The notes: a model not told the origin generated them from the sequence alone. A stretch of 64,000 bases of DNA from Myxococcota bacterium (GCA_036338695.1 JAYZBQ010000048.1:320001-384000), one strand, 5' to 3'; shown: positions 1,691 through 41,432, counted from the stretch's first letter. Numbers and translations: made by a program.

Positions 1691-4600
1691 TTATGGACCC
1701 AGCTTCACGGCCGGGAAGGTCGCTGTTTGCCCTGCGGCGAGGTCCTCGCGCCCGCCGCTGGTCGCCTCGACGACCTCACGAAGTCGACGGGTCAAGACCG
1801 CAAACACTCCATTGAGTACCTCCACGCGATCCGCCACGAGGTCCATGAAGTCTTGTCGATCGATCACCAACAGATCGACACCGTCGCCGCGCCGCGCAGC
1901 CGTCGCCGAGGCTGGGCGCGCCTTGCGATCCAAGAAGCCCACCTGACCAAAGCTCTCAAAGGCACCAAGCCGGAGCAGATAGTTCCCATCCCGGTGAAAA
2001 CTCACGTCACCTGAGACGATCACGAACAGCGCCGTGGACGGGTCATGTTCTCGGTAGATCGCTTGCCCAGGCTCGTAGCGCTCAGGGCGCGCAAGATCGG
2101 CGATGGCCGCCAACTCATCGATGTTGAGCTCACTAAAGAGCTCCACGCGCTGCAGCAAAAAGATCCGATCGATCAGCTCATCGGACATACGGTCCTCCGG
2201 TAGGATGCTCGCGTCCAGCGCCGGTCGAGGCAAGCCCGAACGGCTCAGGCAGCGCCCCGCCACCGCGGCGAGCGTGCGGTCACCCCCCTCGGCGATCTCA
2301 CGCGCCACGTCATGAGAGACGCTCGGCTCGATCGTGGCTTCGGCGCGCTCGAGCTCGGTCAGCAACATGCGTTTCAAGGGGTGGTGTCCGAGGCTCACAT
2401 CAAGGAGCTCAAGCGCGTCGCCGCGCGAGGCGCGGTTGCCGTGCACCAGCACCCGCGTCACCGCTGCGATCAGGCTCCGGTCACCGTGCAGCGCAAACAA
2501 TTTAAGACAGATATCGAGCACCTGAGCATGCCGGCTCTGTACGGCGCGATAGAGCAGGTCAAAGCGCTGCGGATCGGTCGCCAGCGCCGCCCACTGCTGC
2601 CGCAGCGCGAACAAGCGCTTAATCTGTCGCTCGATCGCGGCGTGGGTCCAGGCGACGTCCAGCTGAGAGGCGAGCCAAGGGCGCGCATGCACCAGGCGTG
2701 ACAACGCGCTCGCCACACGAAACTGTAAAAAGGGGTCGTCGTCTGGGTTGGAGCGCAGCATCACGTCCGCCGCGCGCGCCGTCCCGATCATACGCAACAG
2801 CCGTGGCACCTCGTGGCGCAGCCGCAGGCTAATCTCGTGATCGTTCAGCCACGCCTCCGCCTGATCGATCACGCCGTCGCCATAGGCAGCAAGCGCATCA
2901 CGCGCCGTCTGACGCACCGCGTGCTGACGAAGCGCCTGAGCTAACAAGGGGACCGCCTCTTCAAGCTGCAACCGACCACAGCTCTGAGCCGCTAAACGCA
3001 CCACACTCGGCTCATCATCGCCGAGCATCTCGAGCAAAAATTCAGACCACTCGCCCTTAGGAAGGTTACCCAAAAGACGAGCAAACTCTCGCCGATAAGC
3101 TGGCGTTCCTTGGCGGATATAATCAAAAGAGGCCATCACCAGATGGATCCCTCGAGCGCGGCGATCAGGGCAGGCAAAAAGCGCCTCGATGCCTGCGCTC
3201 CTAAGCGCTGGGTCGGTCTGCGCATCGACGACGAGTGGCTCGAGCAGGTCGGCGCTGCGCAGAGCGTCGATGCGCAACAAGCTACGCGCTGCGGCGGCGC
3301 GTGTGCGGCGGTCGCTATGCTCCAAAACCAACCGCTCCAAAATCGGCCAGAGCTGATGCCGCTGATGGTGTGAGGACCACTCGATAGCTCGCAGACGCAC
3401 GCGCTCGTCGCGATGCCCGAGCAGCGTCGAGAGGTGCGCTGTGAGGTCATAGTTGGACTCCGCCAAAAGCTTGAGCGCGCCGAGCACCCTGTTTGCGTCC
3501 GTATCAGACAACATCTGAACCAAAATCCCGAGCGTCGAGGCGTCCTCAAAACCAGCGGGCTGCGGCGCGTTGTCGCGCCGCACGCGCCCGGTGATCTTTC
3601 GGTTCAGACTCTCGGCGTAGTCGGAGCGCAGCAGGCGGATGATCACCACCACCAGACCGACCACGGCGAGCACCGTCGTTGGGTGAATCGCCGCCGGCGC
3701 AAACCAACCGAGCGCAAGGAGCAACAAACCACAGATAGCGCTGCCGATCTTCTTGACCGTGCCATCGAGGAGCGCGCGCAGCGACCCACGCAAGGGCGCC
3801 GGGATCGGGTTGTACAAAAGCGCAACGGCAGCCGACGTCACCGAGAACGAACCGACAGATTGCACGACCTTAAGGGAGTACAGCGGCATGATCGAGCCTG
3901 AGAACCCGATGGCGGCGGCGGCGCTGATCGCCACGGCGATCGGGATCAACATCAAAAAGGGGAACAACCCCATCCTGCTGAGCAGCACGCGCGACAGAAA
4001 CAACTGGAACAAAAGCGCAATGATCCCAGCGTCTACATTGTAGGCGCCAAACAGCGCGTTCATGCCTTCGGCGTCGCGTACGTTCGCAACCGCGCTGCGA
4101 AACAGGTAATCGATCAACGCAGAGAGCAGGGACAGCGAGACGACTAGAGCGCCAAGCAGCTTCGGGTAACGCTCGGCGCGCGTGTACAACACCCCCGCGT
4201 TGATCCGCGCTTGGCCCCCGGTGGTGCGCGGGACCATGGTCCCGCCTGCGCCGCGCCCGATCACCCGAAACAAGGGCTGCGACGCAAACAGCAACAAGCC
4301 GGCGATCACCACCTGAACAGAAGGGTGTACGCCCCCTGAGAAAAGAGAGACCGCCGCGCCGCCCAAGATCGAACCCGCCATACCCGAGGCGCCGATGATC
4401 CCGAGCATGCGCTTGCTCGTTCGCAGGTCAAAGACCTCCGACAGGGTCCCCCAAAACAAGATCGACAGGATCGTCGTATAGGTCTCACCGACGACATAAA
4501 GCAGCGGCTCGATACCCGGCGCCTCAAAATACGCCACGCCCCCTAGAACCGTGAGCACCACGGCGCTGACACGCAGCGCCTGACGACCGACTGAATAGGC

Positions 4601-34029: not shown

Positions 34030-34210
34030 GCTTGATCCAACGCTTCCCCGCCGTGCGGACTTCACCGTTTCGTCTCACCGACAGCAGTATCGGTCGACTT
34101 ACCGAAGGGCCGCAACCCCTTATCACCTGTTCCGATACACGATTCGGACACAGAAACTTGACTAGCGATGCCCGCTCTACGCAGCATACCGGTCCGGAGA
34201 GGTACACACT

Positions 34211-35998
34211 ATGCCGAATAAGATCTCGAACCTTGCGAACACCATGGCAACCGCAGGCGCCTTTAACCGCGCCGACGTCGCCAAGCTCATCGACGCCGCC
34301 AAAGACGGAAGTGGTGTCACAGCGAACGAAAAAGCGGAGCTCAACAGCGTCTTGACCAAGCACGCTGACCTGTTTGAAGCCGGCGCCAAGCTTGATCTGC
34401 AGCGCTTTCTCGACCCGCACTTTGATGCGGGGCTCAAGGCGATGCCAAACGCCGACTTTGACCAAGACGGTCTGAGCAACGCGCACGAGTTCCGCATCGG
34501 CTCGGATCCTCGCCTGAAAGACACCGACGCGGACGGTCTACACGACGGCGTCGAGGTCAACAAATACAAGCTCGACCCGACCGCAACGCAAGACAGCGTC
34601 AAAGCGGAGCGCGCCCCGTGGACCACAACCTACTGGCCGATGGCCGGATACGGAAACGAGGACGGGAACCCCCGGACCCACCTCTGGTCGACGGGTGGAG
34701 CGCTCGACAAGCTCGACAAGCTCAAAACTTCACGCGGCGACGAGAGCGGCGCAAAGGCGCTCGAGTTTGAGCGCAAGCCTGCGCTCAACTGGATCGTCGG
34801 TGACCAAGACAAAGGACACTACATCCCTCACTCCTCACTCAAAGAAAACAACGCCGAGATGACGACGGGCGTCGACTTTGACGGCGACGGCAAGCTCACC
34901 AAAGGTGTCAAAGCCGACTTCATTAACGCACGGGGCGACTTCGCCGCCGTGGTGGACCGAGGCAGCTTCGTGCCCAAATTGGGCGATGAGACCCTGACTC
35001 GAAAGGTCGTCGACGGCGACAATGGCGAGAAGAACGTTCAGTACTTCAAGGCAGACGGCACGCAGCTGACCGCCGACGAAGCCAAAGAGGTCGTCCTGAC
35101 CAACCCGAATTCCGACGGCAAAGCAGACGGCAATATGGGCGTCGGCTGGTGGGGTAGCTGCGATAAAGTGGCGCTCGCCGGGATCCTCTTTGAGGACCCC
35201 AAACGCGACGTGACGGTCGACGGCGTCACCTTCACCAAGCAAGACATCCGTGGGCTGCTGACGGTCGTGGCGGATTCGCAGGCGAAGGGCACGGACTTCG
35301 TCGGGCACCGCTACGATGAGCGCGCCGACATCGTCGTCACCAACGACGGCACCCAGCTCTCGGGTAAAATCCAAGAGATGACGGGCGAAGACTTCCGCGC
35401 CACCAAGGACATGTGGCGATGGAACGGTGACTACATGGTCACCAACGGGTTTGATAAGGACGTCACGATCAAGCTGAGCGACGGCACCGAAAAGACCATC
35501 CCCGCTGCCGAGATCAAGCACCTGGCTCGTGAAGACAAAGCGGATATGGACCCCGGCGTCTTCCACGTCACCATGAAGCAGTGGCTCGCCGAAGGGCGTG
35601 GCGCAGCGATGGACAAAGACGCTGGCTCGCACGTGTGGAACTACAATTTCTCCAAGTTTGAAACCACCGAGCGCAAGGTCGAGAACTTCAACCGCGAAGA
35701 AGCAACGGGTTACCACGGCAAAGCAGGTGACGGTGAGATCCGTCACTACAACGCCTCGGTAACCTTCGACAGCGGCCCGACCAACTACTCGTACTGGCTC
35801 GAGTACAAAGACGGCGACATCGTCAACGGCGGCTGGAAAGGGGACAACCCCGACTTCATGTGGCGCCCTTCAGCGTCCGGGAACTGGAACGAGCACAACG
35901 AGCGAAATCCCTTCGTGAACCCCGAGCTCGTCAAAGAGATCTACGACGCCAGCATCGCCCCAGAAGAAGAGGCGACGCCGGTCGAGAACAACGACTAG
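34211..35998 (+). CDS. Transglutaminase-elicitor (GP42-like) family protein with N-terminal helical domain and DxDxDG Ca-binding repeats
   Basis: GGAGAGG RBS; PWTTTYWP, WWGSC, VTFTKQDIRGLL, DMDPGVFHV, VWN, YSYWLE...GGW...PDFMW follow the GP42 motif order; DFDQDGLSN.HE...DTDADGL.DG.E repeats. Confidence 0.8.
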   Translation: MPNKISNLANTMATAGAFNRADVAKLIDAAKDGSGVTANEKAELNSVLTKHADLFEAGAKLDLQRFLDPHFDAGLKAMPNADFDQDGLSNAHEFRIGSDPRLKDTDADGLHDGVEVNKYKLDPTATQDSVKAERAPWTTTYWPMAGYGNEDGNPRTHLWSTGGALDKLDKLKTSRGDESGAKALEFERKPALNWIVGDQDKGHYIPHSSLKENNAEMTTGVDFDGDGKLTKGVKADFINARGDFAAVVDRGSFVPKLGDETLTRKVVDGDNGEKNVQYFKADGTQLTADEAKEVVLTNPNSDGKADGNMGVGWWGSCDKVALAGILFEDPKRDVTVDGVTFTKQDIRGLLTVVADSQAKGTDFVGHRYDERADIVVTNDGTQLSGKIQEMTGEDFRATKDMWRWNGDYMVTNGFDKDVTIKLSDGTEKTIPAAEIKHLAREDKADMDPGVFHVTMKQWLAEGRGAAMDKDAGSHVWNYNFSKFETTERKVENFNREEATGYHGKAGDGEIRHYNASVTFDSGPTNYSYWLEYKDGDIVNGGWKGDNPDFMWRPSASGNWNEHNERNPFVNPELVKEIYDASIAPEEEATPVENND

Positions 35999-36020
35999 CG
36001 CTCAGCCAATCGCCGAGCGG

Positions 36021-36056
36021 ATCACCGAGCCTCAGCGCTCGGTGATTTCTTTTTTT
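36021..36056 (+). terminator. Intrinsic terminator
   Basis: ATCACCGAGC-ctcagc-GCTCGGTGAT 10-bp stem followed by TTCTTTTTTT. Confidence 0.85.
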
Positions 36057-39757: not shown

Positions 39758-39789
39758 ACAGCTTGGCATCGACGCAAGGCTGACGTAGA

Positions 39790-39945
39790 CCCGTCGTGTC
39801 GCACAGCGGACAGGAAGCTGGTGAGAATCCAGCGCTGCCCCCGCAACTGTGACCGGTGACGACCGCTCGTTGATGCCACTGCGCCGATTTGGCGTGGGAA
39901 GGCGGAGGGGAAGGCTGATCCGGCGAGCCAGGATATTGTGCCTGT
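39790..39945 (+). ncRNA. Cobalamin (B12) riboswitch
   Basis: AGGAAGCTGGTGAGAATCCAGCGCTGCCCCCGCAACTGTGA (39812-39852), GCCACTG...GGGAAGG, B12-box GAGCCAGGA (39925-39933); lies upstream of a TonB-receptor operon. 5' boundary approximate. Confidence 0.93.
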
Positions 39946-40053
39946 GGGACACACTTGAATAGGCTATCGGCGGGATAGACTATCAGCGCGACGTATCGGC
40001 TGCCCCTGATATGGGGTTGAGTTCGCCCCCGCCACACGACCTGGGGTCTCACT

Positions 40054-40788: not shown

Positions 40789-41432
40789 TCCTCGGGCTCC
40801 TCGCCTGCGGTGAAGCGCCGCCTCGTGAGCCGTCTGAAGACGCAGGGCCGCCTGTTGTTGACGCAGGCATCCCCCTCGCAGAGCTTCCATTTGCTACCGA
40901 GGTGGTCGATTTTTCTCCCGGACCAGGAGCCGGATTTGGACAGGTGGATTTTCCCGAGATCGTCTTAGGCCCACCCAAAGGATACGGTCCTCAGCGCGGC
41001 AGCACCGATGTCCTTAGCTTAGGTCACGGCGGCAGCATCACCCTCGGGTTCGCTCCTCGAGTGATCATCGATGGCCCCGGTGAAGACTTTCTTGTCTTTG
41101 AGAACCCGTTCTGGGTTGGGGCATCACCGGATAACGTCTTCTCTGAGCTAGGAAGTGTCGAAGTCAGCTCAGATGGTGATAACTGGTATCAATTTCAGTG
41201 TAATTCGCAACAAATACCACCTGATCAATGTGCTGGATACACACCGACTGAGCGGTTTGACAGCACCCAACCGTTAACACCAGATCGCTGCGGCGGCGAC
41301 GGCTTTGACCTCGCTGCGCTCGGGCTCACCGAGGTCCGTTTTGTCCGCATCACCGACCTGAGTCACTCGGGCGGTGCCCCCAGCGCCGGCTTCGACCTCG
41401 ACGCCGTCGGGCTGATTCATTACCGCAAATGA
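40749..41432 (+). CDS. Cell-surface lipoprotein, BtuH-like putative B12-binding domain
   Basis: Lipobox LLAC; VVDFSPGPG, LSLGHGGSITLGF, GEDFLVFEN, ELGSVEVSSDG, GDGFDL, FVRITD, GFDLDAV; start may be GTG 40764. Confidence 0.7.
   Translation: MRRLCVDQARAALILGLLACGEAPPREPSEDAGPPVVDAGIPLAELPFATEVVDFSPGPGAGFGQVDFPEIVLGPPKGYGPQRGSTDVLSLGHGGSITLGFAPRVIIDGPGEDFLVFENPFWVGASPDNVFSELGSVEVSSDGDNWYQFQCNSQQIPPDQCAGYTPTERFDSTQPLTPDRCGGDGFDLAALGLTEVRFVRITDLSHSGGAPSAGFDLDAVGLIHYRK

Follow-up and report, generated by a model that had tools for sequence, protein, structure and literature searches.

Here we report on a gene in a 64,000-nucleotide (nt) stretch of the genome of a Myxococcota bacterium (GCA_036338695.1, JAYZBQ010000048.1:320001-384000; the whole stretch is called the window below, and positions are counted from its first letter). 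The gene, located at 34211..35998 (+), encodes a protein of 595 amino acids (aa) with the predicted fold of GP42 of Phytophthora sojae, in which the Cys-His pair of GP42 is replaced by Cys-Asp. Taken together, our data tend to favour a likely active GP42-fold cysteine acyl-transfer enzyme that is exported by a secretin-less type III secretion system onto prey proteins. The gene is considered a candidate type III effector because it is preceded by a promoter-like motif common to likely type III secretion genes, and its significance rests on this testable link more than on the change in the active site.

A promoter-like motif shared with likely type III secretion genes

34109..34139 (+): promoter-like motif GCCGCAACC-N15-CCGATA, for which the FliA-like sigma factor of the type III operon is the likely reader
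34211..35998 (+): gene for a GP42-fold (PF16683) cysteine enzyme of the Cys-Asp / His-Val-Trp-Asn subfamily, 595 aa
G000:C42:30141-32823 (L262:8142-10824) (-): operon of needle-like, TPR, 128-aa and FliA-like sigma genes, followed by an SctI-like gene

The sigma-28-like motif GCAAC-N15-CCGATA lies 71 nt upstream of the GP42-fold gene, and its second box resembles the consensus of the sigma-28 -10 element. Among close relatives the upstream regions are divergent except for GGCCGCAAC and CGATA, which are kept at a fixed spacing (8 rows, 5 of them distinct; 5/5). A sigma-70 promoter scan returned 0 sites. This genome was searched with a matrix built from 8 sites of other genomes, for which 14 loci had been submitted, and the reversed genome and wrong spacers served as controls. 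Above a score of 20, the genome contained 8 sites, compared with 1 when reversed and 0-2 when the spacer was wrong; above a score of 18, the numbers were 14, 4 and 2-6, respectively. Ten of these 14 sites precede proteins without a signal, i.e. the GP42-fold protein, the head of the C42 operon, an SctI-like (inner-rod-like) and an SseD-like protein, a phospholipase D and five proteins of unassigned role. Of the other four, one is found ahead of a GH1 lipoprotein, another within a housekeeping gene, and two have no gene (the high-scoring sites on C4 and C85 have no credible gene downstream).

The C42 operon encodes a 169-aa needle-like protein, a CdsG-like TPR protein (E 5e-5), a 128-aa protein and a FliA-like sigma factor (E 2e-36), the second of its kind in the genome. 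It is conserved in G024, G036, G141, G213 and G251, and the adjoining TPR gene is a hint that the needle-like protein may be a divergent needle or filament subunit, even though the system is described as needleless. It is likely that this sigma factor reads the GCAAC-N15-CCGATA motif. Besides a flagellar cluster, the genome harbours a second, non-flagellar set of type III genes, with sctQ, sctR and sctS on C45, sctU on C74, and sctJ and sctN on C59; sctR and sctU scored over their cut-offs, and sctJ, sctN and sctQ were assigned by best match. An SseD-like, translocon-like gene (E 7e-4) is located two genes after sctU. Ahead of sctJ and sctU, and of the gene that precedes sctQ, the motif was absent.

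Export through the flagellum is disfavoured, as the motif was absent from all 7 flagellar upstream regions inspected. Separately, inspection by eye of the flagellar cluster (G000:C76, L248) showed CTAAA-N15-GTCGTT upstream of flgM and a flagellin-like gene, i.e. a sigma-28-like motif different from the type III one.

Three secretin domains were found in the genome, with PilQ or GspD as best matches and one of them beside a TadA-like ATPase; none in the genome had SctC as its best match. The type VI protein VipB was not found in this genome (it occurs in 6/41 genomes overall), and a search for PF13629 returned nothing. All five relatives of the same family have two or more FHIPEP matches.

This gene set resembles the needleless type III system (T3SS*) and the Kil (Tad) system of Myxococcus xanthus, sharing sctJ, sctN, sctQ, sctR and sctU, a TPR chaperone and an SctI-like gene, the lack of an SctC-type secretin, and, as in Kil, a TadA-like ATPase beside a secretin (PMC10433427, PMC12075869). 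In contrast to T3SS*, the genes here are spread over several contigs, flagellar genes are also present, sctV was not found, and this organism is a putative predator. Myxococcus requires its type III-like system to lyse prey, and in the two sources the effectors of that system are called unknown or potential, with none named (PMC10433427, PMC12075869).

The motif in other genomes

An exact-pattern search found 16 matches in three genomes (G001 3, G004 3, G095 10) and 0 in controls. Those in G001 precede orthologues of three genes that are also motif-led in this genome, and in the distant G095 8/10 precede signal-less starts, one of which belongs to a Cys-Asp GP42 relative. Homologues of the needle-like gene occur at 8 loci in 5 genomes, five of them within an operon of the TPR/sigma type, and these five bear either the motif (G024, G036 and G141) or a variant (the other two); motif and operon thereby go together in distant families as well. 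The subfamily loci titled Myxococcaceae carry GAAAC-N15-CCGACAATGTAGG, and an extended variant pattern identified 6 distinct sites in three genomes of family f10 (controls 0), i.e. ahead of a subtilase, two module-bearing calpains, an alpha/beta hydrolase and two GP42 relatives; the subtilase, the calpains and the hydrolase are all without an evident signal.

The N-terminal module

Residues 1-69 of the GP42-fold protein are predicted to form four helices (predicted local distance difference test, pLDDT, 89.5). Searches of Pfam, NCBIfam, the Atlas and solved folds gave no family or specific fold match for this module, which does not show that the fold is new; the best fold-search row had Z 6.5, with no EF-hand among 50 rows, and the best Atlas value was 0.77. 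The module is found in 17/41 genomes, with up to 15 matches per genome, and starts at most 35 residues from the N-terminus in nearly all matches. We sampled 40 matches of non-GP42 type plus three further loci, and analysed 37 proteins in depth. In these 37 the best hydropathy was at most 1.51, and the C-terminal parts fell into 15 unrelated cargo groups. Pfam names could be given to few cargos (calpain, P-domain, peptidoglycan-binding, chagasin, FAD oxidase and DUF4332), 28/38 loci scanned having no Pfam match. One module-bearing protein shares the C-terminus of the SseD-like gene, and a search for longer proteins using the module returned mostly the same family. The suggestion in the original prediction of non-Sec export with a shared N-terminal domain is supported in so far as the module heads many unrelated signal-less proteins in other Myxococcota; in this genome, two profiles found no copy besides that of the GP42-fold gene.

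Considering motif and module together, there is about an even chance that a phylum-wide sigma-28-type promoter and the four-helix module mark the substrates of a myxobacterial secretin-less type III system, one class of which would be a GP42-fold transglutaminase or deamidase with a rebuilt active site acting on prey, beside calpain, subtilase, phospholipase D and alpha/beta-hydrolase. The two features provide a short, testable list of candidate effectors per genome, with this enzyme included.

Three observations on module genes may be added. A module-bearing family of 14 members (L199, L194, L200, L203, L206, L208-L211, L213, L216, L217, L219 and L233), 650-900 aa in length and with several paralogues per genome, has no Pfam match except P-domains in two members. 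In G039, a module-bearing chagasin-like gene (L249:11713-16428) lies around 1.3 kb from a stand-alone sctV. Many module genes without the sigma-28-like motif show, by eye, GCCAAA and, about 14 bases on, a TA-rich box (L197, L198, L201, L202, L204, L206, L209 and L213), possibly another promoter class.

Weighing export against other explanations

Among members of the GP42-fold family, the motif precedes 39/75 signal-less proteins vs 2/28 with a signal, a difference to be read bearing in mind that the pattern was written after the sequences had been seen, that kin are not independent and that some starts are miscalled. This caution, and the 36/75 signal-less members without the motif, weigh against export by the type III system, as do several further points. 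On the side of the motif, 2-6 sites above a score of 18 are expected by chance, the score of the GP42-fold gene is partly circular since close relatives were in the training set, the second-best site precedes the GH1 lipoprotein, which has a signal, so that the motif is no pure secretion marker, and one site precedes a DksA-like gene. In other genomes, 5/8 needle-like loci are without the pattern, including three paralogues beside sctI/sctJ; the motif was found at 0/37 other module genes (1/37 with an earlier pattern), and is missing from the module genes of G024 and G036 even though their needle-like operons have it; and a shorter CGACA-variant pattern was not enriched in the f10 genomes (7 vs 6). 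On the side of the apparatus, the genome, which is 93.6% complete, yielded no second sctV, FHIPEP is present in 36/41 genomes, so that co-occurrence cannot discriminate, the matches to SseD, CdsG, SctJ and SctQ fall short of the respective cut-offs, and the needle-like and inner-rod-like labels derive from C-terminal motifs and gene order, with no match to a type III family. Finally, across 68 loci the GP42-fold gene has neither a chaperone nor an immunity gene as a conserved neighbour; a cognate chaperone gene adjoining a type III effector is common, not universal.

Part of this evidence could also be accommodated by a cytoplasmic protein that is merely co-regulated, its module being a Ca-sensing or docking domain and not an export domain. 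Truncated EF-hand-like loops can be seen in the module by eye, one member matches EF-hand_6 weakly (E 0.097), the motif is also found ahead of EF-hand and caleosin-like proteins, L292 has the motif but no module, and outside three lineages most module genes are without the motif. However, the cargo of the module includes P-domains, peptidoglycan-binding domains and chagasin, which usually act outside the cell, and the motif repeatedly precedes genes for signal-less subtilases, calpains and phospholipases; we therefore regard a cytoplasmic role as unlikely. Similarly unlikely is that the enzyme, exported or held by the type III system, cross-links Gln-rich subunits of the predator's own apparatus. 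The co-regulated needle-like and rod-like proteins do contain 10.7% and 14.4% Gln, and GP42 is described as a transglutaminase (PMC10318531), yet the gene lies apart from the type III clusters, its neighbours are not conserved, and G141 possesses a C42-type operon while its sole PF16683 match is of a different type. Furthermore, some genomes carry two or three paralogues, and such scattered occurrence, at times in multiple copies, would be more expected of an effector than of a structural helper.

We consider it likely, all in all, that the GP42-fold protein is a type III substrate. If so, the sigma-28-like (FliA-like) factor of the operon would transcribe its gene along with those of late substrates, and the N-terminus would route the protein through the type III apparatus, after which the exported enzyme would act on prey proteins. 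There, Cys317 may attack a side chain or peptide bond of the substrate to give a thioester, enclosed in a cage of Trp313, Trp476, Asn477, Asp468 and Asp548, and the acyl group would be passed from Cys317 to an amine or to water. If true, bacteria have taken over, for use in predation, an effector fold known from a cell-wall cross-linker of oomycetes. A search of freely available literature found no description of this subfamily or of its type III link.

Fold and domain architecture

34211..34417 (+): N-terminal module of four helices (residues 1-69), a candidate domain for export or chaperone binding
34448..34579 (+): two TSP3-like DxDxDG repeats with low model confidence, lineage-specific, likely a Ca-binding linker
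34613..34639 (+): W-x3-YWP motif with which the catalytic domain begins (W137, Y141, W142 and P143 invariant in 31/31)
34874..34891 (+): DFDGDG loop, residues 222-227, likely Ca-binding (G220, D222 and G227 invariant in 31/31)
35147..35164 (+): WWGSCD with the predicted nucleophile Cys317 and Asp318 in place of the GP42 His (invariant in 31/31; alignment to 3TW5)
35273..35275 (+): Asp355, aligned with the triad Asp of GP42, variable within the subfamily
35321..35533 (+): inserted small beta-barrel domain, Sm/SH3-like, around residues 371-441 (predicted model)
35612..35647 (+): hairpin DKDAGSHVWNYN with Asp468, His474, Trp476 and Asn477, i.e. the Pep-13-equivalent strand without Pro
35849..35869 (+): PDFMWRP motif with Asp548 (sequence alignment)

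The protein matches the PF16683 (TGase_elicitor) profile with 57 bits (cut-off 25, E 1.9e-15), as do 31/31 aligned members, and its best match among solved chains is GP42 (3tw5; E 7e-8 by sequence and 7e-13 with a profile). An AlphaFold2 model built from 31 sequences (mean pLDDT 83.6) matched 3TW5 with E 5e-10 in Foldseek and with Z 18.1 in VIA-align, i.e. a root-mean-square deviation (rmsd) of 3.5 over 275 residues at 23% identity. Behind it followed papain-like enzymes with Z 5-7, the next rows being UfSP1 and IdeS (Z 6.8 and 6.7). The 595-aa protein is accordingly modelled with the GP42 fold, and the Cys is placed at the start of the core helix.

This bears out the GP42 homology claimed by the original prediction from the open reading frame, which is real and contains every motif listed there (PWTTTYWP, WWGSCD, VTFTKQDIRGLL, DMDPGVFH, SHVWNYNFSKF, YSYWLE, GGW and PDFMW). 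The claimed absence of a Sec signal was likewise upheld, the best 11-residue hydropathy being 0.95 vs 2.26 in a lipoprotein control, and 70/71 N-termini of the subfamily have a hydropathy below 1.2. The inserted beta domain, the DxDxDG loops and the N-terminal helical region that it described were also found. Three such loops start at residues 82, 104 and 222; the TSP3-like repeats score below the cut-off of PF18884, have a pLDDT below 50 at residues 78-101 and are missing from many members. For the beta barrel, Foldseek gave weak rows to DUF903 and Gemin6, and 7zs0 was matched with Z 5.8 and rmsd 1.5 over 46 residues. The label of oomycete homologue in the original prediction was overstated, however, as the PF16683 profile finds 5,655 clusters at 50% identity and the subfamily loci bear bacterial titles; nothing in the data requires a transfer from oomycetes to bacteria.

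Active site compared with GP42

Cys317 (TGC, 35159-35161) is followed by Asp318, and His474 is encoded at 35630-35632. In the chain numbering of 3tw5, Cys317 corresponds to residue 128 (Ser in the solved mutant), Asp318 to His129, Asp355 to Asp166, Asp468 to Asp223, His474 to Glu229, Trp476-Asn477 to Trp231-Asn232 and Asn479 to Pro234. The Pep-13 strand reads VWNYNFSKF compared with VWNQPVRGF in GP42, with Asn479 in the place of the Pro and the Gln also lost. Replacement of the His after Cys by Asp, a His ahead of VWN and loss of the Pep-13 Pro had all been predicted and were confirmed.

GP42 is described as a transglutaminase that lacks the canonical His and relies on a CH motif together with either an Asn of strand beta2 or an Asp from a helix outside the core (PMC10318531). 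In our protein the Cys-His motif is replaced by Cys317-Asp318, and the Trp-Asn of strand beta2 is present (Trp476 and Asn477). The protein shares with P. sojae GP42 (3TW5) the fold, the Cys at the helix start, Val-Trp-Asn, the pre-hairpin Asp and PDF-x-W, and differs in having Cys-Asp instead of Cys-His, a His at the Glu of GP42, neither the Pro nor the Gln of Pep-13 and no signal peptide, as well as in its N-terminal helical module, Ca-type loops and inserted beta barrel. It thus belongs to PF16683 but is not of the GP42 type proper, lacking Cys-His, the Pep-13 Pro and a signal peptide.

WWGSCD is invariant in 31/31 members at 36-86% identity, so the original proposal of a distinct conserved subfamily, and not a one-off degenerate allele, stands. 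Across 308 cores, Asp468 (0.99), Arg367 (0.99) and Asp345 (0.97) are highly conserved, none of them selected by the filters, whereas the invariance of W313, G315, C317, W476, N477, D548, F549 and W551 is partly built in by the motif filters. Judging from these alignments, the constant core would comprise the Cys, Trp-Asn, Asp468 and Asp548, with His474 nearby. The Asp355 position holds D, N, E, T, S, G, Q or Y across Cys-Asp rows and coevolves with position 319, not 318. Absence of the GP42 His and the lack of a conserved triad Asp in the subfamily weigh against an active enzyme, but activity via Cys317 is nevertheless what we hold with most confidence, be it as transglutaminase, deamidase or peptidase. 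Gln-directed chemistry as in GP42 seems a somewhat better guess, because of the kinship to GP42 and the retained Trp-rich cage and for no other reason, with a peptidase being a lesser possibility.

Distribution of the subfamily

Cys-Asp together with His-Val-Trp-Asn marks a large signal-less subfamily, mostly in uncultured Myxococcota, and is not a broken allele. The His before VWN is present in 72/76 proteins (the query and 75 matches). A scan of the genome collection gave 68 loci, all titled as metagenome-assembled genome (MAG) or uncultured and mostly as Myxococcota or Deltaproteobacteria, a few bearing other labels. Some PF16683 match occurs in 83/301 genomes of the phylum, many being Cys-His lipoproteins. 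A quick tree of 51 cores, for which a long-branch warning was given and in which Cys-Asp rows lacking His474 were deliberately kept and His474 rows thinned, separated a signal-less clade of 33 rows from mostly secreted forms with a Shimodaira-Hasegawa-like approximate likelihood-ratio test (SH-aLRT) value of 99. The secreted PF16683 proteins of the same phylum (Cys-His, His-Cys, many of them lipoproteins) have the same catalytic domain and core residues, and some genomes hold both forms, but they differ in their hydrophobic signals, C-terminal accessory domains and separate clade.

L113:1288-2958 (+), P0245 and P0266 are Cys-His relatives with low-complexity N-termini and no signal peptides; L113, from the other clade, is preceded by the promoter motif, an indication that it joined this route independently. 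L228:390-1931 (-) encodes 514 aa comprising the N-terminal module and a distant GP42-like domain without a Pfam match, with Cys-Tyr and with Trp-Phe replacing Trp-Asn.

The position of the histidine

In a sample biased to this subfamily, 196 of 215 cores could be parsed (19 dropped), and the His was located before VWN only in 141, after the Cys only in 31, before the Cys only in 14, at two positions in 1 and at none in 9. Among the best 150 of the 5,655 representatives, 141 were parsed, one of them wrongly; the 140 counted comprised 108 Cys-His, 12 His-VWN, 9 His-Cys only and 11 with none of the three. His474 was present in 0/108 of the Cys-His representatives of this set, the residue after Cys in the 12 His-VWN ones was D in 9 and G, N and P once each, and the secreted branch had D, E, N or P after Cys in 10. 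From these alignments, the three His positions appear mutually exclusive and none of them seems required. The Cys-His of GP42 is consequently one of several arrangements in the family, in which the His may follow the Cys, precede it, stand ahead of Val-Trp-Asn or be missing altogether, and the accepted catalytic assignment is thereby called into question.

The original prediction had taken the His to be relocated, i.e. His474 would fold back to Cys317 and serve as general base, and Asp470 or Asp318 would complete the triad, a matter of chemistry alone that is compatible with type III export. In its favour, His474 is found in 142/153 Cys-Asp cores, never coincides with Cys-His and is retained where Asp318 is G, N or P (3 representatives); Asp470 is D in 17/17 His474 rows vs 4/8 His-less rows, the 470-474 coupling ranks 18/12,578 among non-Cys-His sequences, and a 7-row clade without His474 has a His immediately ahead of the Cys. 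Coevolution was computed on 308 cores with an effective number of sequences of about 150, and is a weak proxy for the His-Cys distance. A coupling of 311-473 was stable (rank 2-8 in six subsamples) and places the hairpin tip beside the loop ahead of the Cys, and a migrating His is documented in papain-like folds (PMC10318531). On the other hand, 8 Cys-Asp rows at a minimum of four tree positions have Q, E or D with no His nearby, the three positions are all empty in the 11 representatives noted above, independent pairs are few and not significant (n=4, median p 1), 318-474 shows no coupling (rank around 3,400-3,700) and 312-474 is unstable (21-671). The pairs 465-480 and 467-478 give a plausible strand register that makes Asp468 the cross-strand neighbour of Asn477, which implies that Asn477 and Asp468, rather than His474, would face the Cys helix. 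What stands of the claim is that His474 never co-occurs with Cys-His; a takeover from the GP42 His is not borne out, given its loss without replacement. His474 more probably has an accessory role than that of a one-for-one substitute, and we regard the relocated triad as doubtful.

The same gaps could mean that catalysis was lost together with the GP42 His, leaving a pseudo-enzyme or binding protein. The missing His and the variable triad Asp position would agree with this, the CH motif being named as the catalytic arrangement of GP42 (PMC10318531). Yet the Cys and the Trp/Asn/Asp cage are retained in 31/31 aligned members, the secreted branch also accepts other residues after Cys, as counted above, and acidic residues stand for His in Streptomyces and Bacillus transglutaminases (PMC10318531), making loss of catalysis improbable. 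An active enzyme with a non-canonical base would resemble Atg4B, UfSP1 and these transglutaminases in its papain-like core (PMC10318531), while they belong to other families with other motif positions, and the Z values are in the range of a common arrangement.

Gene boundaries and surroundings

34196..34202 (+): ribosome-binding site GGAGAGG (sequence inspection)
36019..36056 (+): intrinsic terminator hairpin and U tract, facing a convergent recF-like gene
39770-39959 (+): cobalamin riboswitch, 89 bits

The ATG start at 34211 is backed by the conserved MPNKI start of relatives, the GGAGAGG site and the upstream motif; a 656-aa database version (P0002) reflects a longer start call, an extension that relatives are without. 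The predicted terminator of its own was recovered, its stem (36019-36048) having a z of -4.0 with 0/200 shuffles as stable. The gene forms a unit of its own, flanked by a divergent tusA-like gene and the convergent recF-like gene, and across the 68 loci no neighbours are conserved beyond close kin, which share housekeeping synteny only. Small shares of 20 RNA runs matched, but the runs were chosen with the GP42-fold gene, so that they provide neither a rank nor proof of transcription; in 4 of them, contigs at 95-100% identity span portions of the gene but hardly anything else within 15 kb.

The orthologue in one genome of the same genus (L035:5890-7785, L015) is split into a frame of 487 aa and shorter ones, due to either an assembly error or a broken copy. 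L031, titled Hydrogenedens, is 86% identical to and syntenic with this window and the Myxococcota loci, and is likely mislabelled. The cobalamin riboswitch lies behind ligA and ahead of genes including a receptor-like open reading frame at 41429, and its presence explains the short foreign RNA contigs at 39813-39847.

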